Assembly (NCBI GenBank): GCA_903845295.1
Contig: CAIMWV010000015.1
Location: 6,354 to 70,353 of the forward strand
From: Candidatus Staskawiczbacteria bacterium
GTDB taxonomy: Bacteria; Patescibacteriota; Minisyncoccia; Minisyncoccales; Staskawiczbacteraceae
Reading direction: 5' to 3'
DNA length: 64,000 bases
Part shown: positions 3,893 to 55,609 of the stretch, piece by piece
Layout of the letters: each line of letters begins with the position of its first letter
Position numbering within the stretch: the first letter of the stretch is position 1
The notes under the pieces: model-generated
Database searches by the model: none
Seen by the model: only the letters and a program-made list of their open reading frames with translations
Told to the model about the DNA's origin: nothing
Made by a program: the position numbers and the translations under genes

Positions 3893-4603
3893 ATGAATAT
3901 AAAAATAATTTACGAAGATGATGATGTTCTGGTTGTTGATAAGCCGGCAGGAATTGTAGTTTTCCCGGAGGGTCAAACCAAAGAAAATACCCTGATTGAC
4001 GCTTTAATTGAAAAATATCCCGAGTTAAAAAACACTGGAGAACAGCCAAGATACGGAATTGTGCACAGATTAGATAAAGAGACTTCCGGGGTTTTACTGG
4101 TGGCAAAGAACAATGAAAGCTTGATTTTTCTGCAAAAACAGTTTAAAAATAGAGAGGTAGGAAAGAAATATGTTTGCTTGGTTGAAGGAACGATAAAAGA
4201 GGACAAAGGAGAGATCAAAACTTTAATTGCCAGATCTCCTAAAGACGGGAGGAAACAAAAAGCTTACTCAGAAAATGGACCTCACCCAAAATCAGCCAGG
4301 GAGGCTATAACAGAATATGAGGTTTTAGAAAGATTTAAAGATTATACACTATTAGAAGTTGAGATTAAAACAGGCAGACGCCACCAAATACGGTGTCATT
4401 TTTCTTATTTACATCATCCGATTGCAGGAGATAAATTATACAGTTTCAAAAATTCAAAGATTCCAAAAGGCCTGATGAGGCAATTCCTGCACTCGGCATA
4501 TTTAAAAATCCAATTGCCAAGTGGAGAAATTAAAGAATTTAAATCAGAGCTGCCGGAAGAATTAAACAACGTATTAAAAAATTTACAGCCGGGCGAACAA
4601 TAA
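3893..4603 (+). CDS. RluA-family 23S rRNA/tRNA pseudouridine synthase (RluD-like)
   Basis: Track ORF 3824..4603 trimmed to MNIKIIYEDDDVLVVDKPAG. Catalytic motif HRLDKETSGVLLVAK. Confidence 0.85.
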   Translation: MNIKIIYEDDDVLVVDKPAGIVVFPEGQTKENTLIDALIEKYPELKNTGEQPRYGIVHRLDKETSGVLLVAKNNESLIFLQKQFKNREVGKKYVCLVEGTIKEDKGEIKTLIARSPKDGRKQKAYSENGPHPKSAREAITEYEVLERFKDYTLLEVEIKTGRRHQIRCHFSYLHHPIAGDKLYSFKNSKIPKGLMRQFLHSAYLKIQLPSGEIKEFKSELPEELNNVLKNLQPGEQ

Positions 4604-4692
4604 TGAATTCGGCGTAAATGAGGCATTAATGTATTCGATATATCAGATGGCCTCATTTCCGAAGTAGTCTTATTCGCTTCGCTCACAAGACC
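4592..4692 (+). promoter_or_regulatory. Two-hairpin leader RNA motif, copy A (abuts rplS ATG)
   Basis: Stem cgtaaatgaggc/gcctcatttccg around a conserved loop aatgtattcgatatatca, then hairpin gtcttat..acaagac, then c-ATG. Homologous to copies at 17996-18096, 28149-28251 and 55112-55201. Confidence 0.6.
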
Positions 4693-5127
4693 ATGATAAC
4701 ATTATTAGAAAAATTCAATAAAGACCAATTAAAAGATTTGCCGGAATTAAGGCCTGGCGATACAATTAAAGTATACCAGAAAATAAAAGAAGGAGATAAA
4801 GAAAGAATCCAGATTTTTGAAGGGTTAATTATTGCTAAAAAGCACGGTAAAGGCATTCCGGCCACAATAACCGTAAGGAAAGTTGTTGATGGAATTGGAG
4901 TTGAAAGGGTTTTCCCCATTCATTCCCCCTCTTTAAGCAAAATAGAGGTTGTAAGGCACGGAAAAGTCAGGAGATCAAAACTTTATTACTTAAGGACAGC
5001 TAAAGGACAAAGAGCCAAGCTGAAGAAAAAAGATTTTGCCGTAGCCATTGCCGAAGAACCAGTTACAGAATCGACAGCTCCAGAAAGCCCAACCGAGACC
5101 AAAACATCTGAAAAAAAGTCTGCATAA
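4693..5127 (+). CDS. rplS: 50S ribosomal protein L19
   Basis: 144 aa. [29 protein letters not shown]...[19 protein letters not shown] is typical L19. Acidic/Thr-rich C-terminal extension. Confidence 0.95.
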
Positions 5128-6145: not shown

Positions 6146-6367
6146 TTCAGTTGATAGAGCACTTCATTATTGAGCCGCAGGGTAGGGCAATTTAGTTGAT
6201 TTCCGCCCTCTCCACCGACAACCTCCGTATAAAGAACCCTTTATTCTCTATAAAATAGGTTTTAACATCATCCACTATCCCGCTCCAATATAAAAAAAGG
6301 TGCATAAACGCCTCTTTTTTGTTAAAATCACACTCTTGACAGCTGATGCTATTTTGTGTTGTAACTA

Positions 6368-16462: not shown

Positions 16463-17995
16463 TTACCTGGCATATTCTATTACTCTGTTTTCCCTAATAA
16501 CCACAACTTTGACTTCCCCGGGGTATTTCAATTCTTCTTCAATTTCTGCTGCTATCTGCTTAGCTATTTTTGCAGCTCCCAAATCGTCAACCCTGTCTGA
16601 TTTCACGAATACGCGTATTTCCCTTCCCGCCTGGATTGCATATGTTTTTTCAACGCCTTCAAATTTGTTTGCAATATCCTCTAAATCTTTCAATCTCTGC
16701 AGATAATTTTCCAACGTATCCTTTCTGGCTCCCGGGCGCGAACCAGAAATTGCATCGGCTGTTTTCACGATTACAGCCTCCAATGTTTCTGCGGGATAAT
16801 CTTCATGGTGGGCCCTCATTGCTTTTATAATGGCTTCCGACTCGCCAAACTTTTCCAAAATCTTAATTCCAATTTCAATATGGGAACCCTGTATCTGCTG
16901 GTCAATTGCTTTGCCAATATCGTGCAAAAGTCCTGCTCTTTTTGCAATCTGGCTGTTTGCCCCCAGTTCTTCTGCCATTGTTTCTGATATCAAAGCAACC
17001 TCCATTGAATGCATCAAAACATTCTGGCCATAGCTTGTTCTGTAATGCAATCTGCCTAAAATCTGGATGAGCTTCTCGTTTAATCCGATAACCCCTACCT
17101 CATAAGATGCTTTTTCACCGGCTTCTTTTATTTTGACTGCAATTTCCGCCTTGGCTTCTTCAACTTTTTCTTCAATTTTAGCCGGCTGGATTCTGCCGTC
17201 TGCAATTAATTTGTCCAAAGCAACTTTGGCAATCTGCCTTCTGATCGGATTGAATCCTGAAATAACAACTGACTCGGGAGTTTCGTCAACAATCAGCTCA
17301 ACGCCGGTTAATTTTTCGAATGCCCTGATATTTCTGCCTTCTTTGCCGATAATCCTGCCCTTTAATTCTTCATTGGCGAGAATTACTGTTGTTGTTGTCA
17401 GTTCCTGCGCCTGAGAAACCGCGCATTTTTGGATTGCTAAAGTAACAATTTCTTTTGCCCTATTTTGCAATTTTTCCTGGTTTCCCTCCTCCAGCTTTTT
17501 CATCCTCGCTAAAATTTCTTTTTCGTTTTCAATTTCAACTAATGCCAGCAATTCTTTTTTGGCATCCTCTCTTGAAAGCTGGGCTACCTTTTCCAGTTTG
17601 CCTTCCGCCTCGAGCCTCAATTGTTCCAAGCTTTCTTTTATGGTTTTTAGCTTTTCTCCTTTAGTTTGAAGCTCTTTTTCTTTTTCCTCAAAAGAAATGA
17701 TTCTTTCAGCCAGCAAACTTTCTCTGTTTAATAAAAGCTGTTGGGCTTTTAAAAATTCCCTCCTTCTTTCATCAACGTCTTTTTGAGCCCTTTCTACAAT
17801 GTCGGAAGCCTTTTTCTCTGCATTCCTCACCATTGCAGTCGTCTCTTCTTTAACGTCTATAACTTTTTTCTGCAATTTCGCTTCAAGCGTGCCGGCTCTT
17901 CTTTTTGCCAGGTTTTGCCTGACATAATATCCCAAAATAGAACCTGCAATCAAAGCCACTGCAGCTATAATTACCGATAAAAATGTTTGATCCAC
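16463..17995 (-). CDS. rny: Ribonuclease Y
   Basis: 510 aa. N-terminal TM helix, coiled coil, KH domain (GRIIGKEGRNIR), HD domain (LLHDIGK). GTG start at 17995. Confidence 0.95.
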   Translation of the reverse strand: MDQTFLSVIIAAVALIAGSILGYYVRQNLAKRRAGTLEAKLQKKVIDVKEETTAMVRNAEKKASDIVERAQKDVDERRREFLKAQQLLLNRESLLAERIISFEEKEKELQTKGEKLKTIKESLEQLRLEAEGKLEKVAQLSREDAKKELLALVEIENEKEILARMKKLEEGNQEKLQNRAKEIVTLAIQKCAVSQAQELTTTTVILANEELKGRIIGKEGRNIRAFEKLTGVELIVDETPESVVISGFNPIRRQIAKVALDKLIADGRIQPAKIEEKVEEAKAEIAVKIKEAGEKASYEVGVIGLNEKLIQILGRLHYRTSYGQNVLMHSMEVALISETMAEELGANSQIAKRAGLLHDIGKAIDQQIQGSHIEIGIKILEKFGESEAIIKAMRAHHEDYPAETLEAVIVKTADAISGSRPGARKDTLENYLQRLKDLEDIANKFEGVEKTYAIQAGREIRVFVKSDRVDDLGAAKIAKQIAAEIEEELKYPGEVKVVVIRENRVIEYAR

Positions 17996-18096
17996 GGTCT
18001 TGTGAGCGAGGCGAACAAGATTGCTTCGGAAATTAGACCCTGATATATCTTATACATTGTGGGTCTAATTTACGCTGAACACCTTACGCTTCGCTG
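17996..18096 (-). promoter_or_regulatory. Two-hairpin leader RNA motif, copy C (abuts rny GTG)
   Basis: Sense strand: cgtaaattagaccc-acaatgtataagatatatca-gggtctaatttccg, then gtcttgt-tcgcctcgctc-acaagac, then c-GTG. Confidence 0.6.
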
Positions 18097-26738: not shown

Positions 26739-28148
26739 TTATTTAGCTTCAGTTGGATTTTCCGCGGGCTTTTCTTCAACAGCCGCATCCACTTCGCTTG
26801 GTTCTGCCGGTATTGCCTCTCCGTCTGTCCCAACTTTTTCTCCTTCGGCTTCGCTCGGGGCGGGTTCTTCCTTAGTTTTTTTAGCCTTGCCCCGCGTAGC
26901 CTTGGCGGAGTGGGGTTTCTTTTCCTTTTTTGGTTTTTCCTCTTTTTTATCTTCCTTTTTTTCTTCTTCCTTGGCAACTTCTTCCGCTTCAGCGCCCTCG
27001 GCGATTTCCTCTGCTGTCTTTTCTGCTGTTTTAATATCTATTTTCCAGCCGGTTAAATTGGCGGCCAGACGGACATTCCTGCCGTCTTTGCCGATGGCCA
27101 ATGAAAGCTGGTCTTCTGGCACAAAAACCGTGGCTGTATTTTTATCTTCAACTTTTACCCCGACGATTTTTGCCGGAGATAACGCATTAGCAATAAATTT
27201 TTCCGGCTTTTCTTCCCAAGAAATAACATCAATTTTTTCTCCGCCTAATTCATTTATAACTGCCATGATTCTTGTTCCTCTCTGACCAACACAAGCTCCA
27301 ATTGGATCAACTCCTTCTTCATTTGAAACAACTGCAATTTTTGTACGAAATCCCGGCTCTCTGGCAATTGACTTTATCACAACAACTCCGGAAGCGACTT
27401 CCGGCACTTCCAGCTCGAATAATTTTGAAATTAATTTTGGATAAGCCCTTGAAAGCATTACAACCGAACCTTTCGGAGTATCCTCCACTTTCATTATATA
27501 AAGTTTCAGGCGCTGGCTTGGCCTGTAAAATTCTCCGGGAATCTGTTCATCCCTGTTTAAAATTCCCAATGTTTTCCCGATGTCCACAAAAACCGTATGG
27601 CCCTCGACTCTCTGCACAATTCCTGAAATAATTTCCCCTTCTTTTGACCTGTATTCTGAAGAAATTGTTTCTTTTTCCGCTTCCCTTATTTTTTGCAATA
27701 TGACCTGCTTTGCAGTCTGGGCCGCAATCCTGCCATAATCCTGCTTTGAAACCAAAGGAATTTCAATCTCTTCCCCAGCCTTGATTTTCGGATAATCTTT
27801 TTTGGCATCAGCCAGCATTATATGTTTTTCGGGATTAAAAACATATTTTTTAGGCGGCTCTTCGCCTGCTCTCGCCTCATCCTGCGGAATCATTTTATTT
27901 TCTTTCATTTCTTCAATTTCCTCGTCTGTATAAAGCATTGAGTTATCCACAACTAATTTTATCTGCCAAAACTTAACATCGCCCGACACCGGGTTGAATT
28001 TGGCCTTAATTTTCTGTCCCTTTTCGCCGTAGTCTTTTTTATAGGCAGTGGCGATTGCCGCCTCAATTGTTTCTATCACCTTTTCCGGTGAAATTCCTCT
28101 TTCCTCTGCTATTTGAGCCAATGCTCCCTTAAAACCTTTTATGTCCAT
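26739..28148 (-). CDS. nusA: Transcription termination/antitermination factor NusA with Lys/Glu-rich C-terminal tail
   Basis: 469 aa. NusA N-domain, S1 domain, two KH domains (GACVGQRGTRI, AIGKDGRNVRLA). Confidence 0.95.
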   Translation of the reverse strand: MDIKGFKGALAQIAEERGISPEKVIETIEAAIATAYKKDYGEKGQKIKAKFNPVSGDVKFWQIKLVVDNSMLYTDEEIEEMKENKMIPQDEARAGEEPPKKYVFNPEKHIMLADAKKDYPKIKAGEEIEIPLVSKQDYGRIAAQTAKQVILQKIREAEKETISSEYRSKEGEIISGIVQRVEGHTVFVDIGKTLGILNRDEQIPGEFYRPSQRLKLYIMKVEDTPKGSVVMLSRAYPKLISKLFELEVPEVASGVVVIKSIAREPGFRTKIAVVSNEEGVDPIGACVGQRGTRIMAVINELGGEKIDVISWEEKPEKFIANALSPAKIVGVKVEDKNTATVFVPEDQLSLAIGKDGRNVRLAANLTGWKIDIKTAEKTAEEIAEGAEAEEVAKEEEKKEDKKEEKPKKEKKPHSAKATRGKAKKTKEEPAPSEAEGEKVGTDGEAIPAEPSEVDAAVEEKPAENPTEAK

Positions 28149-28251
28149 GGTCTTGTGAGCGAGGCGAACAAGACTACTTCGGAAATGAGGCCATCTGATA
28201 TATCGAATACATTAGTGCCTCATTTACGCTGAACTCATTATTCGCTCACCG
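28149..28251 (-). promoter_or_regulatory. Two-hairpin leader RNA motif, copy B (abuts nusA ATG)
   Basis: Sense strand: cgtaaatgaggc-actaatgtattcgatatatcagatg-gcctcatttccg, then gtcttgt-tcgcctcgctc-acaagac, then c-ATG. Confidence 0.6.
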
Positions 28252-28318
28252 TTTTTTTTAAAAAAATATGCCCGTGGTCAGACGGACAAGTTAACTCATT
28301 AATTCCAATTCTTATATC

Positions 28319-28347
28319 AATATAGCAAAAGCCAACATATGTGTCAA
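28319..28347 (-). promoter_or_regulatory. Promoter of the nusA leader
   Basis: Minus strand TTGACA (28347-28342), 17 nt, TATATT (28324-28319). Confidence 0.5.
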
Positions 28348-28415
28348 GAAACAAAAAAGAGCCCGACAGATATCGAGCCCCTGCTAAAACGTGCAATGAG
28401 CAAATGGTGCAACTT

Positions 28416-28571
28416 TCAGTGGTCGTGAACGTCGACGCAATCGTTCTTGCAGGCGCGATAGATCAGCCAAAGAAAGGAAGCTATCATGACTGCTACAAAT
28501 ATCCATATTGCCAAGTCCTTGTTAGGATCTTCGTTTCGCCCGATTGCTTCAATTACTTTCATGACACACAT
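28416..28571 (-). CDS. Small membrane protein, 51 aa (cassette 2, gene 4)
   Basis: Not in the ORF track (<60 aa). AGGAGG 8 nt before the ATG. MCVMKVIEAIGRNEDPNKDLAIWIFVAVMIASFLWLIYRACKNDCVDVHDH has one TM helix. Confidence 0.5.
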   Translation of the reverse strand: MCVMKVIEAIGRNEDPNKDLAIWIFVAVMIASFLWLIYRACKNDCVDVHDH

Positions 28572-28604
28572 GGCCTCCGCCTCCTTTCCGGCTCTTTAGA
28601 AGCC

Positions 28605-28757
28605 TCAGTAGTCGCCATAGTAATCTTCTTCACGGGTAACGTACCAAATCCCGACGAGAAAAGCGAGCAGAAACAAACCGCACAACACTAATTCCGCCCT
28701 AGCCTTGCCGGGATCCATTTCTTGCAGCGTTTCCGCAATTACCGGCAGGATGTTCAT
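28605..28757 (-). CDS. Small membrane protein, 50 aa (cassette 2, gene 3)
   Basis: Not in the ORF track. AAGGAGG 4 nt before the ATG. MNILPVIAETLQEMDPGKARAELVLCGLFLLAFLVGIWYVTREEDYYGDY has one TM helix. Confidence 0.55.
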   Translation of the reverse strand: MNILPVIAETLQEMDPGKARAELVLCGLFLLAFLVGIWYVTREEDYYGDY

Positions 28758-28786
28758 GTTGCCTCCTTTCCCAAGCTCCCGAGGAG

Positions 28787-29191
28787 CTAAGCGTTAAACC
28801 GCGTGCGCCAGATGCTCTCCACCCGGCTAGGCTGGCTTGCTTCCTTCCGTTCCGGCCGGTCTTTCTTTTTCCTTTTCGGTTCGCAGGGTTTCACTATCCC
28901 ATGGAACACGCCCCGCCCGTGAAGAACTCGCAAAACCTTCAGCGCCCTTTCCACGTGTTTGATGGCGTGCCCGTTGGCTCGGAAAAACTTTTGCAGAGCC
29001 GCCCTGGCTTCTTCTTGCTTTTGATTGTTTCCCTGGTCAGCTTCCAAGGCCCCGCGGGCTTCGGTAAAGTCGCTGAAGAAAACAAACATGTCATCGCAGG
29101 CGTCTTGGGCGTCGGCCAGCGCTTCGTTATTCACGAGCGTCACGTAATCGTCGAAGCTTTCGCACCTCTTACCGTTCCGCATCTTAAACAT
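28787..29191 (-). CDS. Hypothetical protein, 134 aa, acidic N-half and basic C-tail (cassette 2, gene 2)
   Basis: Track ORF 28787..29260 trimmed to ATG 29191, with GGAGG 5 nt upstream. Its start overlaps the upstream stop by 8 nt (ATGTTTAA). Confidence 0.65.
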   Translation of the reverse strand: MFKMRNGKRCESFDDYVTLVNNEALADAQDACDDMFVFFSDFTEARGALEADQGNNQKQEEARAALQKFFRANGHAIKHVERALKVLRVLHGRGVFHGIVKPCEPKRKKKDRPERKEASQPSRVESIWRTRFNA

Positions 29192-29522
29192 TAAGCCCTC
29201 CTCCCTTTTCCTGCCTGCGGCTGTGTGCCCAGCAATTGCGGCACATGCCGCTGCCGCCATCGGGGTTTGTCTCCGTAAAATCGTTTTTGCACTTCCCGCA
29301 CTTGCCCTCCCTGTTCAATTCCTTCCATTTCATATCTATCACGATGTATTTCTTCTCTTCCCCTCCGCCGTAATATTTCATCACAACGAAGGATATGAAA
29401 AACATCGTCAGCGCGCCTTCAATCAACTGGTCTCTGACAGGCAACCCTCGCGTGAGAGTTAACAATCCCACAGAAACCGCAGTGATTGAAAGGGCGTAAA
29501 GAATCGCTTTCCACGTCTTCAA
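29184..29522 (-). CDS. Membrane protein with C-terminal CxxC...CxxC zinc-ribbon, 112 aa (cassette 2, gene 1)
   Basis: TTG start with AGGAGG 6 nt upstream. Two TM helices, then KCGKCKNDFTETNPDGGSGMCRNCW. Confidence 0.65.
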   Translation of the reverse strand: MKTWKAILYALSITAVSVGLLTLTRGLPVRDQLIEGALTMFFISFVVMKYYGGGEEKKYIVIDMKWKELNREGKCGKCKNDFTETNPDGGSGMCRNCWAHSRRQEKGGGLNV

Positions 29523-29572
29523 GTCGCGCCTCCTTTCAAAGAGCTGTTTAAGTTTGAACCTTAACCAGTTTC

Positions 29573-29601
29573 AGATTAAGGCAGTTTATGGTATGTGTCA
29601 A
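29573..29601 (-). promoter_or_regulatory. Candidate promoter of cassette 2
   Basis: Minus strand TTGACA (29601-29596), 17 nt, TAATCT (weak -10). Confidence 0.4.
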
Positions 29602-29906
29602 CCTTCTGAAATCGTAATCCCAAAATAACGGATTTCTCCTAACTGCGCAGGCAGGGATTTTTTTACAAAAGAAAAAGCACTCAAAGAGTGCCTGGGGAAG
29701 GGAATGAGGTTGCGGGGGATTAGATTTATGGTTTAGCATGAAAGGATGGTGAGTGAGGAAGGTGGCAGCAGAACTGCCGAGGTGTTACTGAAGATTAAGT
29801 TGTAAAATAGCTTGGTTGAAGAGCTCCTGGTTCGATGTTGGAACCTTGTAGACGATTTTGCTTGCGGCTACGGTTCTCTCTTCTTCCAACTTAATTATCA
29901 CATAAG

Positions 29907-29941
29907 CAAAAACCCGCGTCAATAGCGCGGGCACTTTTTTT
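29907..29941 (-). terminator. Terminator downstream of yraN (bidirectional form)
   Basis: cccgcg-tcaatag-cgcggg with an A run on one side and a T run on the other. Confidence 0.55.
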
Positions 29942-29949
29942 GTTCAAAA

Positions 29950-30363
29950 TTATTTATCCTTTACAATATTCTCAAAAAAATCAACTTTTGGAATTTCATT
30001 ATTTATGGAAATTGCTATTATATCTATCTGGCAAGGATAATTTTGCGGAAACTTATTTTTTGAAAGCCAGATTTCAGCTAAGCTTATATATTTATTCTGC
30101 TTTTTATAGTCAACCCTCTGCTCAGGAAAAAAATCTTTGCCTTGTTTAGACAAAGATTTTACTTCAATGAAATGAATTGCCCGCCCTGAGGACGCCGAAG
30201 GGTTTTTCCTAAATAGATCCCCAAATTTCCATCTTTTTTGGGCAATAATATCGATTTCTCCAAAGTTTATCCTATAGTTTCTCCCTATGATTTTATACCC
30301 GTTCTTAACAAGATATTCACAAGCCAAATCCTCTCCAAATTTTCCTAAATCCCTTGTATCCAT
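29950..30363 (-). CDS. yraN: YraN-family (UPF0102) endonuclease-like protein with an in-frame G+C-rich insert
   Basis: 137 aa. GEDLACEYLVKNGYKIIGRNYR..GEIDIIA...HFIEVKS. Insert NPSASSGRA is encoded by 30179-30203. Confidence 0.8.
   Translation of the reverse strand: MDTRDLGKFGEDLACEYLVKNGYKIIGRNYRINFGEIDIIAQKRWKFGDLFRKNPSASSGRAIHFIEVKSLSKQGKDFFPEQRVDYKKQNKYISLAEIWLSKNKFPQNYPCQIDIIAISINNEIPKVDFFENIVKDK
30179..30203. repeat. G+C-rich mini-element copy (inside yraN)
   Basis: gcccgccctgaggacgccgaaggg is the reverse complement of the CCCTTCGRC..CTCAGGGC consensus. Confidence 0.6.
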
Positions 30364-30364
30364 C

Positions 30365-31336
30365 TTATTTAATAACGTTTAATGGCGGATATAACTGTTT
30401 ATCAATCGTTCTTACAAAACAAGAATGCCCAGCTGGATGATCCCAATTGGAAATTTTATCCATTGTATACGTATAAATAGGAGAAGGGCTATTCTTGTTG
30501 GTGGCTTTATTGAAATTAGCGCACAATTCAAACGATAATTGGCTCTCGGATGTTATAATATATTCGTAAGGAGTATTTGTTTGCGGATCTAATGGCGCAG
30601 TAAAACCGGAAATGGAATCATTCAAATCTTTTAGGGTTGCGGGCAATACCTGTTTTCTCTGCCAATAATTTATTATGTTTGATTGGATATTCTGTAAGTC
30701 AGAAATCTTTTGCTGGTCAAACTGCATTAATCTTGCAGTCGCAGGCGAGCCGACTATAAAAAATGCTCCGACAACGCAGGCCAAAACCACGATTCCCGTG
30801 GCCCAGGCAAAATATTTTGCTGACTTTGTCGGTGTTTCGCGCCTTACATCATCTAAATAATATCCAAAAACGACTCCGGCCACCAAAAGCACTGATAGCG
30901 CTTTTAAAATAAACCTTGCTGTAATTTCTCCTCCTAAAAACGTGTTTATAACGCTTACTAAATCTCCGATAATCACCAATGAAGCAATAAAAAGAGTCAG
31001 ATATATCAGCCATTTTCTTATTTTTGATTCTCTGACTGCAGACTCCCTCCTGTAAATTTTATTTAAATACCAAGAAACAAGGATAAAAACAGGAAAGACT
31101 ATTATCAATGAGGAGACTGCGAATCTGATAGGCCCAGCAAAACCCATATACCCATAATATCCGTTCAAAATATCGGGAAAATAATAATTTATGTATTGCC
31201 ATAAAAGCGTGACAAAGCTTACTGCTGACCAATAAAGCGTGACTACTGCCAACAGATGCAAAAATAAATCTCTTGGAATATTTCTTCCTCGCCCTGAGCC
31301 CGTCGAAGGGTTTGGCATTGATTCTGTGTTTTCCAT
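30365..31336 (-). CDS. Multi-pass membrane protein (DUF5671-like) with extracellular C-terminal domain
   Basis: 323 aa with about 6 TM helices. The N-terminus carries an in-frame G+C-rich insert (PNPSTGSGRG). Confidence 0.6.
   Translation of the reverse strand: MENTESMPNPSTGSGRGRNIPRDLFLHLLAVVTLYWSAVSFVTLLWQYINYYFPDILNGYYGYMGFAGPIRFAVSSLIIVFPVFILVSWYLNKIYRRESAVRESKIRKWLIYLTLFIASLVIIGDLVSVINTFLGGEITARFILKALSVLLVAGVVFGYYLDDVRRETPTKSAKYFAWATGIVVLACVVGAFFIVGSPATARLMQFDQQKISDLQNIQSNIINYWQRKQVLPATLKDLNDSISGFTAPLDPQTNTPYEYIITSESQLSFELCANFNKATNKNSPSPIYTYTMDKISNWDHPAGHSCFVRTIDKQLYPPLNVIK
31291..31310. repeat. G+C-rich mini-element copy (inside 30365..31336)
   Basis: gccctgagcccgtcgaaggg. Confidence 0.6.
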
Positions 31337-34151: not shown

Positions 34152-34391
34152 TTACAAAAATCTTTTGTTCGTGAATGCATATCCCGAGCTCGATTTAAGA
34201 TATCTTTCAAAATCGTATGCTTTTTTCTTGCTTAAAAAAGCGCAGTACCAAATTAATTCATATGGTCGCTTTGGATTAGAATATTTAGCATTCCCAGAAT
34301 TATGTTCTTTAATACGCCTTTTCAAATCAAAAGTGACTCCAAAATATCTGCTCTTATCTTTTTCGCTTTGCAAAACATAAACGTAAAACAT
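34152..34391 (-). CDS. GIY-YIG nuclease-family small protein
   Basis: Track ORF 34152..34568 trimmed to MFYVYVLQSEKDKSRYFGVTFDLKRRIKEHNSG...; the longer form would overlap tRNA-Ala. Confidence 0.8.
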   Translation of the reverse strand: MFYVYVLQSEKDKSRYFGVTFDLKRRIKEHNSGNAKYSNPKRPYELIWYCAFLSKKKAYDFERYLKSSSGYAFTNKRFL

Positions 34392-34508
34392 TGGAACTGC
34401 CCCACTCCGCCAAGGCTTCGCGGGGCACCACTTCGCTTTTTGAAAATTATTTTTCAAAAATTGTTTAGTGCTTGCACCGCGTAGCTCCGAACGAAGAGAG
34501 GAGCGAAG

Positions 34509-34582
34509 TGGTGGACCTGGGGAGAATCGAACTCCCGCCTCAGCAATGCGAATGCCGCGTAATGCCACTTTACTACAGGCCC
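34509..34582 (-). tRNA. tRNA-Ala (anticodon CGC), CCA encoded
   Basis: Reverse complement gggcctg...caggtcca-cca, G3:U70 pair, anticodon arm cggca-ttcgcat-tgctg. Confidence 0.9.
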
Positions 34583-34602: not shown

Positions 34603-34625
34603 CCCTCCGGCGCATCGCTCAGGGC
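34603..34625. repeat. G+C-rich mini-element copy (intergenic)
   Basis: ccctccggcgcatcgctcagggc. Confidence 0.5.
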
Positions 34626-34685
34626 ACTTCGCTTTACTAACTCTTTGCAGTTGCCTGCATTGAGCGAGCGAAGCGAGTCGAAGTG

Positions 34686-34833: not shown

Positions 34834-36348
34834 CTACGTTACCCAATATTTTTGTTTCGTCATTTCATCTTCTTTGGTTTCAATTTCCGATTTTTCTTCT
34901 TTTGATTTTTCTGCCATTTTTTTCAATTCTTTATCCGGCAATTTTCCTAATTTCAAAGCCTCTTTTTCCAAGAATTCTTTGGTATTTTTTTTAGGATCAT
35001 CTAAAACGTAACCCAATAGCACATCTAGGGTCTGGCCTATTCTTGGTCCTGGCTTTATGTTTAAAATCGACACCAGATCATTTCCGTTGATTTCCAGCAT
35101 TTTGGCAGAAATGGGGTCTTTGGAAACTTTTTCAATCAGATATTTTAAGTGCCTTAATTTATACGGTTCGGCTTTCGGCACCCCCGACCCTATTCTGTCA
35201 GCCTGGCGCACCTGCAAAAGCTCTTCCATGTTTTCCAACCCTACATTTTTTACCAATCTCCGCACAGATGCATCTTTGACCTCGTCAACATTGTAATAAA
35301 ATAAATGGTATCTTACAAGCTTGGTTATTTTCTCAACATCTTTTTTGGGAAATTTCAAATTATTTAGAATTTGGAAAGCCATCCTGGCCCCCACAATTTC
35401 ATGGTTATAAAAAGTCGCGTTTTCCCCCTCCCCGGATTTAGCTTTAGGTTTTCCAATGTCATGCAACAAGGCGGCCAATCTCACATGCATATTAAATTTT
35501 TTCTTTGCAGTATATTCCAAAGATTTTATTGCGTGCTGGTAACAGTCGTAAATATGGTGTTTGTTCTGCGAAACGCCGTAATTATCCAGAAGCTCGGGCA
35601 CAATATATTTTAACAGCCCTAGTTCCCTCAGCAATTCGATTCCCGCCGAAGGCCCTGAGGACATTCGGCTGAGCTCAGTCGAAGCCCCTGTCGAAGGGTC
35701 TGCCATTATTATTTTTACAAATTCGTCCCTGATTCTTTCTTTAGAAATCGCTTCCAGCCAGATGCTATTTTTTTTAATTGCCTCGGCGGTATTTTTTTCA
35801 ATTGCAAAACCCTTCGACCCGCTCAGGGCAGGTCCAAGCGTTGTTGCAAACCTTACAGCCCTCAGCATTCTTAAGGCATCTTCATCAAATCTTTCCTCCG
35901 GATTTCCGACAGTTTTTATTATCTTGTTTTTCAAATCTTTTTGTCCATCAAATAAATCAACAATTTTCTTTTTCTCATCCATCGCCATCGCATTTATGGT
36001 AAAATCCCTCCGGCTTAAGTCATCCTCAAGAGTTTTGGCATATTTTACTTGGTCAGGATGTCTTTTATCAGAATATTTTGCCTCAAGCCTGTAAGTTGTA
36101 ATTTCAATTTCCGCCAATTCAGGGCTTTTGCTGCCGGTTCTTGCGGTAACTGTCAAAAAATTATTTTCATAAAAACTATTGGGAAACACTTTTTGGATTT
36201 CTTCGGGCTTAGCATTAGTTGTAACATCCCAGTCTTTCGGTTCTATGCCAAGTAAAAAATCGCGCACGCATCCGCCCACGACATACGCCTCGTAACCTGC
36301 TTTTTGCAAATCTTGGATTATTTTTTTTACTTCTTTAGGAATAGCCAT
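34834..36348 (-). CDS. cca: CCA-adding enzyme / poly(A) polymerase-family nucleotidyltransferase with HD domain
   Basis: 504 aa. GGCVRD...DWDV head domain, RDFTINAM, HD motif LLHDIGK. Contains two in-frame G+C-rich inserts. Confidence 0.85.
   Translation of the reverse strand: MAIPKEVKKIIQDLQKAGYEAYVVGGCVRDFLLGIEPKDWDVTTNAKPEEIQKVFPNSFYENNFLTVTARTGSKSPELAEIEITTYRLEAKYSDKRHPDQVKYAKTLEDDLSRRDFTINAMAMDEKKKIVDLFDGQKDLKNKIIKTVGNPEERFDEDALRMLRAVRFATTLGPALSGSKGFAIEKNTAEAIKKNSIWLEAISKERIRDEFVKIIMADPSTGASTELSRMSSGPSAGIELLRELGLLKYIVPELLDNYGVSQNKHHIYDCYQHAIKSLEYTAKKKFNMHVRLAALLHDIGKPKAKSGEGENATFYNHEIVGARMAFQILNNLKFPKKDVEKITKLVRYHLFYYNVDEVKDASVRRLVKNVGLENMEELLQVRQADRIGSGVPKAEPYKLRHLKYLIEKVSKDPISAKMLEINGNDLVSILNIKPGPRIGQTLDVLLGYVLDDPKKNTKEFLEKEALKLGKLPDKELKKMAEKSKEEKSEIETKEDEMTKQKYWVT
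35642..35699. repeat. Compound G+C-rich mini-element (inside cca; encodes DPSTGASTELSRMSSGPSAG)
   Basis: cccgccgaaggccctgagg...gagctcagtcgaagcccctgtcgaaggg. Confidence 0.6.
35810..35829. repeat. G+C-rich mini-element copy (inside cca, opposite orientation; encodes ALSGSKG)
   Basis: cccttcgacccgctcagggc. Confidence 0.6.
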
Positions 36349-36443
36349 CTTAATTGAATTTTGAATTTAGTATTTTGAATTTTGAATGGAATTTAGAATA
36401 TTGAATTCTGGATTCTTTATTCTATTCTGGATTCTGACTTCAG
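36349..36443 (-). repeat. AT-rich AGAAT-repeat upstream module, copy 1 (abuts cca ATG)
   Basis: The sense strand ctgaagtcagaatccagaatagaataaagaatccagaattcaatattctaaattccattcaaaattcaaaatactaaattcaaaattcaattaag-ATG is homologous to 56307-56406. Confidence 0.6.
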
Positions 36444-36475
36444 AATACTATATTTTAATCATATTATCCTAAAAC

Positions 36476-36504
36476 TTGTGTTTTTTCAATTTTTTATGTA
36501 AAAT
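36476..36504 (+). promoter_or_regulatory. Promoter of tRNA-Arg(TCG) and the pilin-like gene
   Basis: TTGTGT, 17 nt, TGTAAAAT (extended -10). Confidence 0.4.
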
Positions 36505-36533
36505 AATACAATTATTAGCATTTTTAATTTCGT

Positions 36534-36605
36534 GCCCCTGTGTTGAAATGGATATCATCTTTGCCTTCGAAGCAAAGGTTGAGGGTTCGAGTCCTTCCAG
36601 GGGCA
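36534..36605 (+). tRNA. tRNA-Arg (anticodon TCG)
   Basis: Acceptor gcccctg/caggggc, anticodon arm tttgc-cttcgaa-gcaaa, T arm gaggg-ttcgagt-ccttc. Confidence 0.9.
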
Positions 36606-36614
36606 CAAGAAAAT

Positions 36615-37028
36615 ATGAAAAAAATATTTTTATTGATTATTTTATTATCAATAATTTTTGCACCTGTTTTTGCAAGCGCCGCAGGATTAGTGCCATGCAC
36701 TGGAGCTGTAACTTGCACAGGCACGGCTCCCAATCAAACCTGTACAACCGATTGCACTATAAGCGCGTTTTTTACCCTGATTTTAAATATTTATAATTTC
36801 ATAGTACAAGATATAGCCACGCCATTGGCAATATTATCAATCTCAATCGGAGGAATTATTATGATGATTTCAGCCGGCAATCCAAACCTATTAGGGCTTG
36901 GCAAAAAGATTTTTTATGCTGCAATCATCGGATTGGTTTTGGTTTTCTGTTCATGGTTGATAATTAATTTTATAATGCAGGCGGTCGGATATACCGCCAA
37001 TGGAGGAGCCTGGTCAAGCCTTCCATAA
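36615..37028 (+). CDS. Small secreted two-TM pilin-like protein (TrbC/VirB2-style T4SS pilin family common in CPR)
   Basis: Track ORF 36540..37028 trimmed to MKKIFLLIILL. Signal peptide, then AAGLVPCTG...C...C motif, then two hydrophobic helices. The ATG is 9 nt after the tRNA. Confidence 0.6.
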   Translation: MKKIFLLIILLSIIFAPVFASAAGLVPCTGAVTCTGTAPNQTCTTDCTISAFFTLILNIYNFIVQDIATPLAILSISIGGIIMMISAGNPNLLGLGKKIFYAAIIGLVLVFCSWLIINFIMQAVGYTANGGAWSSLP

Positions 37029-37081
37029 ACCCGCGCCCCCTAGCAATTGGTTTAAAAATCGTTTAGTATCACTTGTGCCCA

Positions 37082-37154
37082 GCCCTCATAGCTCAGCTGG
37101 TAGAGCAGTTGCCTCTTAAGCAATTGGTCACAGGTTCGAATCCTGTTGAGGGCA
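37082..37154 (+). tRNA. tRNA-Lys (anticodon CTT)
   Basis: Acceptor gccctca/tgagggc, anticodon arm gttgc-ctcttaa-gcaat, T arm acagg-ttcgaat-cctgt. Confidence 0.9.
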
Positions 37155-37155
37155 C

Positions 37156-37428
37156 ATGTTCTATGTTTATTTTTTATTTTTAAATAACCAAAATATTTAT
37201 AAAGGATTTACTGCCGATTTAGAAAGAAAAATCGAATAACACAAAACAGGAAGGGTTGCATCAACAAAAAATAAAAATCCGACGCTTATCCACTATGAAG
37301 CCTATCTGCTAAAAACAGATGCGGAAAGGCGCGAGAGATTTCTCAAAACTACTGAGGGCAGAAGATTGCTTAAACAACAATTAAAAGATTTACTAAATAA
37401 ATTAGGTTCGTCAGGTCATTCGACCTGA
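37156..37428 (+). pseudogene. GIY-YIG nuclease gene with in-frame TAA (37237-37239), inserted at the tRNA-Lys 3' end
   Basis: MFYVYFLFLNNQNIYKGFTADLERKIE*HKTGRVASTKNKNPTLIHYEAYLLKTDAERRERFLKTTEGRRLL... parallels the intact copy at 34152..34391. The stop replaces the conserved Glu (GAA to TAA). Confidence 0.7.
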
Positions 37429-37466
37429 CGCCCAGTCGGATGACTGGGCGAATCCTGTTGAGGGCA

Positions 37467-37495
37467 CCCTTCGACTCGCTTAGCTCGCTCAGGGC
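37467..37495. repeat. G+C-rich mini-element copy (intergenic)
   Basis: cccttcgactcgcttagctcgctcagggc. Confidence 0.5.
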
Positions 37496-37580
37496 GAACT
37501 TCTTTACAAAAGAACAAAATTAGAGTATATTATATCTATTATTAACCTTGGACGCCGGAAGCGCCCTTGTATATTAAAAA

Positions 37581-37850
37581 ATGTCGTTAACAACAAAAGA
37601 AAAGACAAAAATAATAAAAGACGTTAGTGAAGACGAAAAAAATACGGGCTCTGCTGATGTGCAGATTGCTTTGTTATCAAAAGCAATAGACAAGCTGGTT
37701 TTGCATCTGAAAAAACACCCTCAAGATGTGCATTCAAAAAAAGGGCTTATCACAATGGTCATAAAAAGGAAAAAACAATTGGCCTATTTGAAAAAAATAT
37801 CTGAAAAAAGATATTCGGCTATCATCAAAAAAATCGGATTAAAAAAGTAA
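37581..37850 (+). CDS. rpsO: 30S ribosomal protein S15
   Basis: 89 aa. GSADVQIALLSKAIDKLVLHLKKHPQDVHSKKGL. TGTATATT lies 5 nt before the ATG. Confidence 0.95.
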   Translation: MSLTTKEKTKIIKDVSEDEKNTGSADVQIALLSKAIDKLVLHLKKHPQDVHSKKGLITMVIKRKKQLAYLKKISEKRYSAIIKKIGLKK

Positions 37851-37874
37851 ACAAATAAATCATAAGGAAATCGC

Positions 37875-38378
37875 ATGCAGCCAAAACCAAAAGAGCAGAG
37901 AGTAGAGGTGCTCATAGACGTACAAAATTTGTATTATTCAGCAAAAAACCTTTACCACTCGAAAGTCAATTTTCAGGAAGTTTTAAAACAGGCAGTTGCC
38001 GGTAGAAAGTTTATTAGGGCTTTTGGTTATGTAGTGCGTACAAAAACTGGCGAAGAAGCGCCATTTTTTGATGCATTGAGCAAAATTGGAATTGAAACAA
38101 GAGTAAGAGATCTGCAGGAGTTTTATGGAGGAGCGAAAAAGGCTGACTGGGATGTCGGGATTGTAATTGATGCGATAAGAACTGCTCCGGGATTAGACGT
38201 AATTGTTTTAGTGTCAGGCGACGGAGATTTTATTCCCTTGGTAGAGTATTTAAAAAACTTTGGGAAAAGAGTTGAAGTGGTTGCATTTGGCAGGACAACT
38301 TCAGCAAAACTAAAAGAGGTTGCCGATGAGTTTATCGATTTAGATGAAAATGTTGCAAAATTTTTGTTGAAAAAATAA
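37875..38378 (+). CDS. NYN-domain (LabA/DUF88-like) protein
   Basis: 167 aa. VEVLIDVQNLYYS...DWDVGIVIDAI...VIVLVSGDGDFIPLVEYLK. Confidence 0.75.
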   Translation: MQPKPKEQRVEVLIDVQNLYYSAKNLYHSKVNFQEVLKQAVAGRKFIRAFGYVVRTKTGEEAPFFDALSKIGIETRVRDLQEFYGGAKKADWDVGIVIDAIRTAPGLDVIVLVSGDGDFIPLVEYLKNFGKRVEVVAFGRTTSAKLKEVADEFIDLDENVAKFLLKK

Positions 38379-52932: not shown

Positions 52933-53577
52933 ATGAATGAACAAAAAAATAATGTACGCGTGTTATTTACGGTCAAAGCAAATTCTGGTCTTAATGACAT
53001 AATAAAAAAATTTGGCTTGGAAGAAACCATGGAAGAGTCTGTGAAAAGAATGCAAAAAGGAAAACTTGCAAAAATGGTTGTTATTGACCATTTATCCAAA
53101 GATTTTGCATTAGGGACTATATCAGAAAAAGATTTGGTCAGCTCTTTAAAAGATGATTTAGAAATTTCTCAACAAACAGCAGGGCAAATTTCAAAAGATA
53201 TTTTGACTAATATTATTCCTTTTTTGGAAAAGGTTCCCGAAGAAAAATTGAAGGACCCTGCTTTTGTGGAAGAACTTGTTAAAAAAGTTTTGGGAGAAAC
53301 AATGAAAGAAAAACCTTTGATTTCTAAAATAGAAACTCCCGGGCAAGAACCCTTCGGCACGGCTCAGGGCAAGAAAGATATAGATCTTTTTCCTAAAATT
53401 AAACCCGATGAAAATATTACCAAACCAACAGAAAAAAATACTTCAGTGCCAGAGAAAGAGCTGGGTGGAGGAACCGCACTTCAATCAAAAAAAATTAAAA
53501 AACCGCTTCCAAAAGAATCTGCGCCCCAAATAAAACAAACAAGGGGACCAGACAATTATCGCGAACCGATTGGGTAA
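52933..53577 (+). CDS. Hypothetical protein, 214 aa (contains an in-frame G+C-rich mini-element)
   Basis: ATG ORF. The segment EPFGTAQGK is encoded by 53350-53370. Confidence 0.55.
   Translation: MNEQKNNVRVLFTVKANSGLNDIIKKFGLEETMEESVKRMQKGKLAKMVVIDHLSKDFALGTISEKDLVSSLKDDLEISQQTAGQISKDILTNIIPFLEKVPEEKLKDPAFVEELVKKVLGETMKEKPLISKIETPGQEPFGTAQGKKDIDLFPKIKPDENITKPTEKNTSVPEKELGGGTALQSKKIKKPLPKESAPQIKQTRGPDNYREPIG
53350..53370. repeat. G+C-rich mini-element copy (inside 52933..53577, third reading frame)
   Basis: cccttcggcacggctcagggc. Confidence 0.6.
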
Positions 53578-55078: not shown

Positions 55079-55111
55079 AACAAAATAAGTATAATAAAAA
55101 ATTAACAGAAA

Positions 55112-55201
55112 AAGGTGTTCAGCGGAAATTAGACCAGCAATGTATAAGATATATCAAGGTCTAATTTCCGAAGCAAATCTGCTCGCCTCGCTCGCAGACC
55201 C
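55112..55201 (+). promoter_or_regulatory. Two-hairpin leader RNA motif, copy D (abuts GTG of the PrgI-like gene)
   Basis: cggaaattagacc-agcaatgtataagatatatcaa-ggtctaatttccg, then tctgc-tcgcctcgctc-gcaga, then ccc-GTG. Confidence 0.6.
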
Positions 55202-55609
55202 GTGGAACAATATCCTATACCACAATTTATTGAATCAGAGAGCAAAATTATTTCGTTCATGTCATTTAAACAATTTTTTTACCTTGTGGGAGCCGGGCTC
55301 ATCTGTTTTTTCCTGTATTTTATTTTGCCCCGCGTTCTTTTTTTTATAGTTAGCGCTATAATTTTTCTTGCTGCAATAGTACTCGCCTTCGGAACAATGG
55401 GCGGCACTCCCATACTAAATATAATTTTAGGATCGATTGGTTTTTCAATGGGCGGCAAAGATTATACATGGAAAAAGAAGGAATCCCCCTACCCTTTCAA
55501 ACCGATAAAAAGGACTCAGATTAAAAAAATAGAACAAGGCCCTGTTTTACAGGCCCAAACAAGCCAATTAAAAAGAACGCGCACTGCGATAGAAATGCGC
55601 ACTAAGTAA
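55202..55609 (+). CDS. PrgI/VirB3-like small membrane protein of a type IV secretion system
   Basis: 135 aa. MEQYPIPQFIESESKIISFMSFKQFFYLVGAGLI followed by two TM helices. Located two genes upstream of VirB4. Confidence 0.6.
   Translation: MEQYPIPQFIESESKIISFMSFKQFFYLVGAGLICFFLYFILPRVLFFIVSAIIFLAAIVLAFGTMGGTPILNIILGSIGFSMGGKDYTWKKKESPYPFKPIKRTQIKKIEQGPVLQAQTSQLKRTRTAIEMRTK

Follow-up and report, generated by a model that had tools for sequence, protein, structure and literature searches.

A short G+C-rich hairpin element within and between the genes of a Candidatus Staskawiczbacteria genome

How does one and the same short piece of DNA come to lie inside several unrelated bacterial genes and yet leave their reading frames open? 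The question is raised by a stretch of 64,000 nt from Candidatus Staskawiczbacteria bacterium (Patescibacteriota; assembly GCA_903845295.1, contig CAIMWV010000015.1, forward-strand positions 6,354 to 70,353). This stretch, which we call the window, has ~39% G+C and 18 tRNA genes. A first-pass annotation had noticed in it a G+C-rich element of ~20 nt, placed in frame in four genes, among them cca, the gene of the CCA-adding enzyme. The explanation that we favour, with a little more confidence than doubt, is that this element is an undescribed, non-autonomous hairpin akin to REP (repetitive extragenic palindromic) sequences, and that the in-frame copies of the Candidate Phyla Radiation (CPR) are those that selection has left.

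Copies in the window and in close relatives

The exact pattern CCCTTCGRC-N(2-12)-GCTCAGGGC has four matches in the window and none in 100/100 dinucleotide-preserving shuffles of it, in line with the suspicion that it recurs above chance. When one to three mismatches are allowed, the count rises to nine. All copies listed at first, coding and intergenic, were found in their places when the sequence was checked; those at 34657-34685, 34470-34511 and 26841-26864 are additional. Pfam and translation confirmed the host genes and the insert peptides, and with them the four genes, three reading frames and both orientations of the coding copies. The cca gene and the copies are as follows.

34834 to 36348, minus strand: cca; the 504-aa product is a CCA-adding enzyme of class II that has an HD domain
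35642 to 35699, minus strand: compound copy in cca, outer unit CCCTTCGACAGG and CTCAGGGC, then CTTCGGCGGG; encodes DPSTG...SGPSAG
35660 to 35686, minus strand: nested 27-nt unit GGCTTCGACTGAGCTCAGCCGAATGTC at the loop centre of the outer cca copy; encodes ASTELSRMS
35810 to 35833, plus strand: 24-nt unit CCCTTCGACCCGCTCAGGGCAGGT, antisense to cca; encodes (P)ALSGSKG
31287 to 31310, minus strand: 24-nt unit CCCTTCGACGGGCTCAGGGCGAGG close to the N-terminal end of the DUF5671 gene (30365 to 31336, minus strand); encodes NPSTGSGRG
30179 to 30202, minus strand: 24-nt unit CCCTTCGGCGTCCTCAGGGCGGGC in the UPF0102/YraN gene (29950 to 30363, minus strand); encodes NPSASSGRA
53350 to 53373, plus strand: 24-nt unit CCCTTCGGCACGGCTCAGGGCAAG in the open reading frame (ORF) 52933 to 53577 (plus strand); encodes PFGTAQGK, within EPFGTAQGK
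34603 to 34625, plus strand: intergenic copy GCCCTCCGGCGCATCGCTCAGGGC, one arm of an inverted pair
34657 to 34685, minus strand: intergenic copy CACTTCGACTCGCTTCGCTCGCTCAATGC of the 11-nt spacer type, inverted partner of the preceding copy
34470 to 34511, minus strand: decayed copy CCACTTCGCTCC...GCGGTGCAAGC, directly 3' of tRNA-Ala
37467 to 37499, plus strand: 33-nt intergenic copy CCCTTCGACTCGCTTAGCTCGCTCAGGGCGAAC, upstream of rpsO
26841 to 26864, plus strand: decayed copy TCCTTCGGCTTCGCTCGGGGCGGG, lying antisense where nusA codes its C-terminal tail

Read in the CCA-adding enzyme, the compound insert is DPSTGASTELSRMSSGPSAG and (P)ALSGSKG stands 4-13 residues past the EDALRMLRAVRF helix; the protein segments across the two are ...ADPSTGASTELSR... 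and ...LGPALSGSK.... The nested unit has a GGC/GCC stem variant and a GAATG tail. Pfam gave no match for the ORF 52933 to 53577, and the core of its copy recurs identically in another locus (L248) with other flanks. Element copies decay towards A+T. The copy beside tRNA-Ala is the ortholog of CACTTCGACTCGCTTCGTTCGCTCAGCGCAAGC in L249, and the nusA copy is common to the window and L121, where it is more decayed.

Are these segments recent arrivals? Loci syntenic with the window (L121 and L122, L123, L124) were aligned with it as DNA, further cca loci were taken from metagenomes (n=80), and the genomes compared for filled and empty sites are 74-97% identical. The homologues of the CCA-adding enzyme (n=120, 76-94% identical, labelled Candidatus Staskawiczbacteria or Patescibacteria) mostly have 482 aa, against 504 aa in the window. 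Among the 121 sequences, DPSTG..SGP, the simple form of the compound copy, is found in 16, ALSGSKG in three and the extra ASTELSRMS in the window only; L123 is without the compound copy. The solved CCA enzymes 6ibp and 1miv of the Protein Data Bank have an 8-residue gap at the first cca insert, and the alignment stops at the second.

At the DNA level, the nested 27-nt unit is an exact indel inside the older cca copy when compared with L121 and L122, the site of the 24-nt antisense unit of cca is an exact gap in L124, L285, L264 and L252, and the DUF5671 unit is an exact insertion relative to L121, between GCCAAA and AAGAAA; all three are free of target-site duplication. The antisense cca site holds a 33-nt form in L272. 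L123 shares the DUF5671 copy with the window, is without the YraN copy and has a copy of its own ~35 nt away, and upstream of rpsO L121 has a decayed short form directly 3' of tRNA-Lys. Net insert sizes in the cca loci are all multiples of three, most commonly 24 nt, and also 21, 15, 18, 12, 27 and 33 nt. Judging from these alignments, the copies are recent, lineage-specific insertions, as the first-pass annotation had supposed for the peptides' lineage, and are polymorphic among close relatives.

The structural position of the cca inserts, which had been singled out as worth evaluating, could be placed on an AlphaFold2 model of the window enzyme (mean pLDDT, the per-residue confidence score, 74). 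Both inserts are non-helical and of low confidence (pLDDT <50): residues 174-178 stand between helices 159-170 and 185-200, and residues 220-230 between helices 203-214 and 233-242. They are predicted to lie in surface loops tolerant of insertion. Across the relatives, insertions in cca cluster at ten or more hot spots, where either this element or a member of other families of short G+C-rich palindromes is found.

These other in-frame G+C-rich palindromic inserts in cca form several families of their own (L245-L298; for example L251, L265, L247, L278, L276 and L254), with peptides such as SSLPAGRQ (CCTGCCTGCCGGCAGGCAGG), DPPAGGE (TCCGCCAGCTGGCGGA), SAKGFGGPK and RGTPGV (GGGGTACCCC). Some of the hot spots hold A+T-rich low-complexity inserts instead.

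Loop, stem and distribution of the element

What kind of unit is being inserted? The exact indels give a length of 24 nt, including a purine-rich tail of 3-4 nt, rather than the ~20 nt assumed at first. The core is TTCGAC-RR-GCTCA in a stem of 3-5 bp, followed by CGAACGG or AGGC; more generally, the conserved loop has the form T-TCGRC-(2, 3 or 11 nt)-GCTC-A and the purine-rich tail is CGAACGG, AGGC or GAGG. Besides CCC/GGG, the flanking triplets are GGC/GCC, TGG/CCA, TGC/GCA, TCC/GGA and others, and among cores other than CCC/GGG they are perfectly complementary in 52/76. Pair counting over 94 copies gave 79.8% paired cells, against 57.9 ± 1.5% with shuffled partners, and a covariation score of 0.497, against 0.150 for shuffled and 0.03-0.15 for slid partners; three stem pairs have 20-50 changes on both sides. 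These values make the unit a hairpin whose loop is conserved while its stem covaries, the opposite of what a simple palindromic element would show. A possible likeness to RNase P RNA and to 16S rRNA at its 5' end (GCTCAGGACGAACG) was set aside, since the CPR copies are without the CGAACGG tail.

The element is not special to this one genome. A scan of one genome per species yielded at least 120 loci, with Proteobacteria, Acidobacteriota, Chloroflexota, Actinomycetota, Cyanobacteria, Bacteroidota, Planctomycetota, Verrucomicrobiota, Nitrospira and several CPR groups among the matches listed; cultured isolates and complete genomes are among the carriers. A scan of viral contigs found it in phage contigs, again with many matches listed and with the spacer and tail spectrum seen in bacteria. 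Among the matches listed, spacers are far from random, being mostly AA, AG, TTC or TCC, and the next bases are GAACGG or AGGC. The element is thus not specific to the Staskawiczbacteria lineage: in most bacterial phyla, and in phage contigs too, this sequence is a repeat lying between genes, in the manner of REP sequences and of their mosaic arrays, the bacterial interspersed mosaic elements (BIMEs).

In Proteobacteria and phage contigs the usual form is a doublet, CCGTTCG-(GGC TGAGCYTGTCGAA GCC)-spacer-(CCC TTCGACARGCTCA GGG)-CGAACGG, or an array. The convergent orientation is the commonest (LR 43, RL 20, LL 8, RR 9). Two local hairpins are favoured over one long palindrome because the arms of a doublet bear different self-complementary stems; inverted arms of ~27 bp are found only in doublets of other phyla, and single units are without terminal inverted repeats. 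In Sphingobium replicons the element occupies up to 24 places per record, with almost no annotated feature under the matches listed.

Within the CPR the layout is another one. Here copies are mostly single units rather than doublets, and in 0.96 Mb of Staskawiczbacteria-like DNA 38/43 lie in open frames (at least 120 aa), which make up 86.7% of the bases (binomial p = 1.0). Since 38/43 equals the coding density (~87%), genes are not avoided by the element in these genomes. In low-GC loci outside the CPR, 0/16 copies lie in long frames (Fisher p = 2e-10). In-frame copies were found in the following CPR groups:

Saccharibacteria: ComM-like ATPase and M17 peptidase
Curtissbacteria: ATP-dependent DNA ligase
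Parcubacteria: pilin leader peptide
Peribacteria: DJ-1/PfpI protein

Five of the six reading frames of the element are stop-free, one antisense frame having a TGA. In the CPR loci, each of the three frames is found among sense copies. Antisense copies are read in the ALSxxKG frame without exception, and the PExVEG frame, although open, goes unused. As the first-pass annotation had claimed for the window, every coding copy there and in the CPR loci is in frame and stop-free, and the net lengths are all multiples of three. These open frames are best explained by selection filtering the insertions, with spacer and tail varying the insert length. In the Parcubacteria locus (L043, 1835-1854), the antisense copy codes for the last residues of a type IV prepilin leader peptide (..MALSQSKG followed by FTIVELL), so that residues of the element stand just ahead of the expected prepilin cleavage site.

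Known repeats and possible origins

Does the element belong to a described family? It shares with REP sequences, BIMEs and REPINs (hairpin-forming REP doublets) hairpin units of 20-40 nt that are numerous and dispersed, an arrangement outside the CPR as intergenic convergent doublets and mosaic arrays, the lack of target-site duplication and the lack of coding capacity of its own. Non-CPR copies have this layout, being extragenic (0/16 in ORFs) and convergent; CPR copies (38/43 in ORFs) are intragenic and mostly single. The element also differs from these repeats in conserving a loop of 11-13 nt while its short stem covaries, in having no GTAG tag (the 3' flank is CGAACGG, AGGC or GAGG and the 5' flank variable) and in being shared across phyla, REP sequences being species-specific. 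The closest precedent is the set of REP superfamilies that Di Nocera et al. (2013) described in several phyla, whose CGTC group is without a dedicated transposase and which include intragenic REPs coding short peptides, among them Rickettsia RPE-4 and RPE-6 with the CGTC tag (PMC3733652). These GTAG and CGTC superfamilies have loops of 4-5 nt on stems of 8-9 bp, unlike the 11-13 nt and 3-5 bp of the element, whose motif is absent from the text and supplements of that paper.

Other comparisons fit less well. Against the miniature inverted-repeat transposable elements speak the exact junctions without target-site duplication and the lack of terminal inverted repeats in single units. For an origin from IS200/IS605, as in the palindrome-associated transposable elements (PATEs), no duplication is what was seen; no fixed target was seen, A being simply frequent at position -1, and insertions also lie in loop centres and at tRNA 3' ends. 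A DNA uptake signal does not agree with all-or-none indels and a motif spread over many phyla and phages.

Rickettsia palindromic elements are ~100-150 bp long. The likeness to them that had been proposed stands for behaviour: they too lie in frame in conserved genes of a reduced genome, are tolerated at the surface and are polymorphic between relatives. It fails for family, as the inserts here measure 24-33 nt and bear no CGTC tag of RPE-4/RPE-6; moreover, the Rickettsia elements are confined to Rickettsia, and the units of our element span 21-33 nt, with 58 nt for the compound copy. The mobile G+C clusters and 'byp' elements of yeast mitochondria are short G+C-rich hairpins in an A+T-rich genome, of several families, also intragenic and strain-polymorphic; they differ in their organelle hosts and unrelated sequences. 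The ribosome skips byp elements, and nothing suggests such bypass here, because all examined coding copies are in frame and stop-free.

At gathering threshold, Rfam placed no family on the element copies of the window and of 17 pan-bacterial loci. The consensus of RF02901 (AaHKsRNA41), a small RNA of Aggregatibacter, includes CUGAgCUUGcCGAAG ... gUUCGgCAAGcUCAg, a doublet of the element kind, which suggests that doublets are transcribed in at least one species. A phage-contig array (L176) hits this family below threshold (E = 5e-6, 33.2 bits against a gathering score of 97), and it has no match in the window copies. Unlike the local hairpins of the element, the two arms of the RF02901 model pair with each other. 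Full-text searches of the searchable literature with element DNA strings and signature peptides (FDKLRA, PSTSSGR, LSLSKG and others) matched only unrelated primers and proteins, and nothing relevant was found on REP sequences in CPR/Patescibacteria.

To explain these results we propose that a structure-specific enzyme would act in trans and move the element in the form of a single-stranded hairpin; the best precedent for it would be an HUH/Y1 transposase of the RAYT (REP-associated tyrosine transposase) or IS200/IS605 kind. The favoured targets would be structured and single-stranded: the centre of the loop in copies already present, where nested copies lie in unrelated loci and phyla, and tRNA acceptor stems at their base. 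In CPR lineages, single units of 21-33 nt, mostly 24 nt, are copied to new sites as discrete pieces without target-site duplication. As these genomes are ~87% coding and genes are not avoided, most insertions fall in ORFs, and selection would then spare only those that are free of stops, of 3n length and placed in surface loops that tolerate them. On this view xPSTGSGx, ALRxGSGQ, PFGxAQG and ALSxSKG would be by-products and not peptides selected for a function, and the spacer variants at orthologous sites would probably stem from template switching from copy to copy.

Several observations weigh against this proposal. Some filled and empty sites differ by a net +15 nt with local replacement, not by a clean insertion. 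The partial self-complementarity noted at first holds for the 4-bp CCCT/AGGG stem and not for folding, since single window copies fold no better than shuffled sequence (z -0.7 to +1.0), save the one at 34603-34625 (z = -2.5). No transposase or nuclease came to light, the ORFs between distant copy pairs being housekeeping genes. In a neighbourhood survey of 240 pan-bacterial and viral loci with ~440 copies (among the matches listed), all-against-all ORF clustering revealed no recurrent protein family near copies except phage and gene transfer agent structural genes, and no RAYT gene was seen within ~4-7 kb. Insertion sites have no 4-5-nt target motif of the IS200/IS605 type, A being weakly preferred at -1, and the GTAG/CGTC tag of the described REP superfamilies is absent. 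Finally, the near-identity of the loop across phyla is left unaccounted for. An E. coli RAYT query had no Pfam match and no significant tblastn match (best E = 0.42) and was discarded as unusable.

Could the copies spread with no dedicated enzyme at all? A hairpin might stall the replication fork, and the nascent strand might copy another unit through the 9-nt arms or microhomology, by template switching or gene conversion between copies. The absence of any gene linked to copies would fit, and so would the behaviour of resident copies. Orthologous copies differ only in their spacer (2 nt, the canonical 11-nt TCGCTTCGCTC or 30 nt), which means that information has passed from one copy to another. 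At cca site 172 the spacer is CC in the window but canonical TCGCTTCGCTC in L272; at the rpsO site the short form belongs to L121 and the 11-nt one to the window; at cca site 220 the difference is 27 nt. The nested unit lies between ...GACAGG and CTCAGG... of the resident cca copy. This composite is met again in L252, in a gene unrelated to cca, and 'onion' composites CCCTTCGAC[CCTTCGACRRGCTCAGG]GCTCAGGG in other phyla have nested copies at the same loop position, so that the loop centre is a recurrent insertion point. Tandem half-duplications such as CCCTTCGACCCTTCGAC are found as well. However, primary insertions into unrelated coding sequence show only 0-2 nt of microhomology, the 5' boundary at CCC is precise, and near-identity across phyla together with covarying stems is hard to obtain by slippage alone; we regard this route as unlikely, though worth keeping in mind. 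We have greater doubts about an RNA origin, in which a small hairpin RNA, for instance a tRNA 3' trailer cut off behind the discriminator base, would be copied into DNA by reverse transcription and joined in at breaks. Unit 5' ends are indeed precise and 3' ends vary by ~3 nt, and the non-coding copies of this lineage begin 0-3 bases from the 3' ends of tRNA-Pro, tRNA-Ala and, ancestrally, tRNA-Lys: the copy at 34657-34685 starts right after the discriminator base of tRNA-Pro, its inverted pair lying inside a window-specific insert of ~97 nt between tRNA-Pro and tRNA-Ala, and the copy at 37467-37499 comes after a duplicate tRNA-Lys 3' end (37441-37466). TTCGA and GCTCAG of the loop presumably also occur in tRNA T- and D-loops. 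Yet 0 of the ~440 pan-bacterial and viral copies, among the matches listed, adjoin a tRNA, only 3/18 window tRNAs have an element trailer, no reverse transcriptase was identified, and selection for 3n length explains the 3' variation equally well, all of which makes this origin quite improbable. A general role as tRNA trailer was rejected, 15/18 window tRNAs being without the element.

Very improbable, in our judgement, is a motif built by mutation and selection for a function, be it a DNA-uptake or recognition signal or a flexible Gly/Ser linker. The peptides are small and flexible, and antisense copies keep to one frame and shun another open one; uptake signal sequences, too, sit within genes and as inverted pairs. 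But the indels are clean and all-or-none, one and the same sequence is translated in four different frames and is intergenic as well, it is found in unrelated phyla and phages, and its copies decay towards A+T. As for chance matches or chimeric assemblies, which the shortness of the motif might invite, they have virtually no prospect of being right: no matches are expected, the same insertions are present in independent JGI and ENA assemblies, and the element occurs in isolates and complete genomes. A bolder and improbable reading is that the near-invariant loop (TTCGAC..GCTCA) might be conserved across phyla because a universally conserved host factor, and not a transposase, reads it, possibly as a mimic of tRNA T-/D-loops or as a tRNA trailer. 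The CPR proteome might then be continuously remodelled by 8-residue cassettes entering essential enzymes, through an undescribed mechanism aimed at hairpin loops and tRNA 3' ends.

Neighbouring features and wider meaning

Further features of the window lie close to the copies. The 3' end of tRNA-Lys (GAATCCTGTTGAGGGCA, 37130-37155) is duplicated ~310 nt downstream, at 37441-37466, and the DNA in between appears by eye to code for the C-terminal part of a small GIY-YIG protein; the duplication looks like the scar left when an element entered the tRNA gene. Between tRNA-Ala and a DUF2207 gene stands a gene for a small GIY-YIG nuclease (34152-34391, minus strand, 79 aa, start MFYVYVL); it appears mobile, because it is absent here in L121 and L123 and present in some relatives only. 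Such genes accompany tRNA-linked copies in several CPR loci but in 0/240 pan-bacterial and viral loci among the matches listed, and the idea that they are a general mobiliser was rejected. A second G+C-rich palindromic mini-element, CCCCACTCCGCCAAGGCT(A/T)CGCGGGGCA, is found at 26888-26915, in the nusA tail, and at 34397-34429, just upstream of the GIY-YIG gene; L121 is without the nusA copy (gap of ~21-24 nt, 15 + 6 in the alignment).

Elsewhere, a ~100-nt repeat with an internal hairpin, TCCACGGTCTTGTGAGCGAGGCGAACAAGATTGCTTCGGAAATTAGACCC...GGGTCTAATTTACGCTGAAC, is present at 4590-4700, 17980-18090, 28130-28245 and, on the minus strand, 55100-55215, as well as in L121 (2405-2520). Four or more ORFs, nusA among them, have this repeat beside their start, and it may be a shared promoter or leader module. 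At ~15327 of L121, corresponding to 29913-29932 of the window, a 40-nt A+T-rich palindrome TTGAGTCTTCACCCAAATTTTGCCAAAATTGGGTGAAGAC sits in the loop of a terminator-like hairpin and may have a TTGA duplication. G+C is higher at 1-2000 (0.49) and 28000-30000 (0.47) than in the rest of the window (~0.38). The cumulative GC skew has its minimum at ~36000-38000, and gene orientation turns from mostly minus to mostly plus, consistent with a nearby replication origin.

What does such an element mean for its hosts? It reveals small mobile DNA that is active in CPR/Patescibacteria, a group with tiny genomes that tend to be called poor in mobile elements. Essential CPR proteins are altered by its 8-residue insertions: the CCA-adding enzyme, PNPase, DNA ligase, the ComM-like ATPase, the M17 peptidase and the pilin leader. 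The insertion hot spots offer a natural map of loop-insertion tolerance in CPR enzymes, and the copies can be used as strain-level markers. CPR genomes are tied through it to a repeat common to most bacterial phyla and phages, and the conservation of its loop, together with the covariation in its stem, asks for a shared factor by which the element is recognised.

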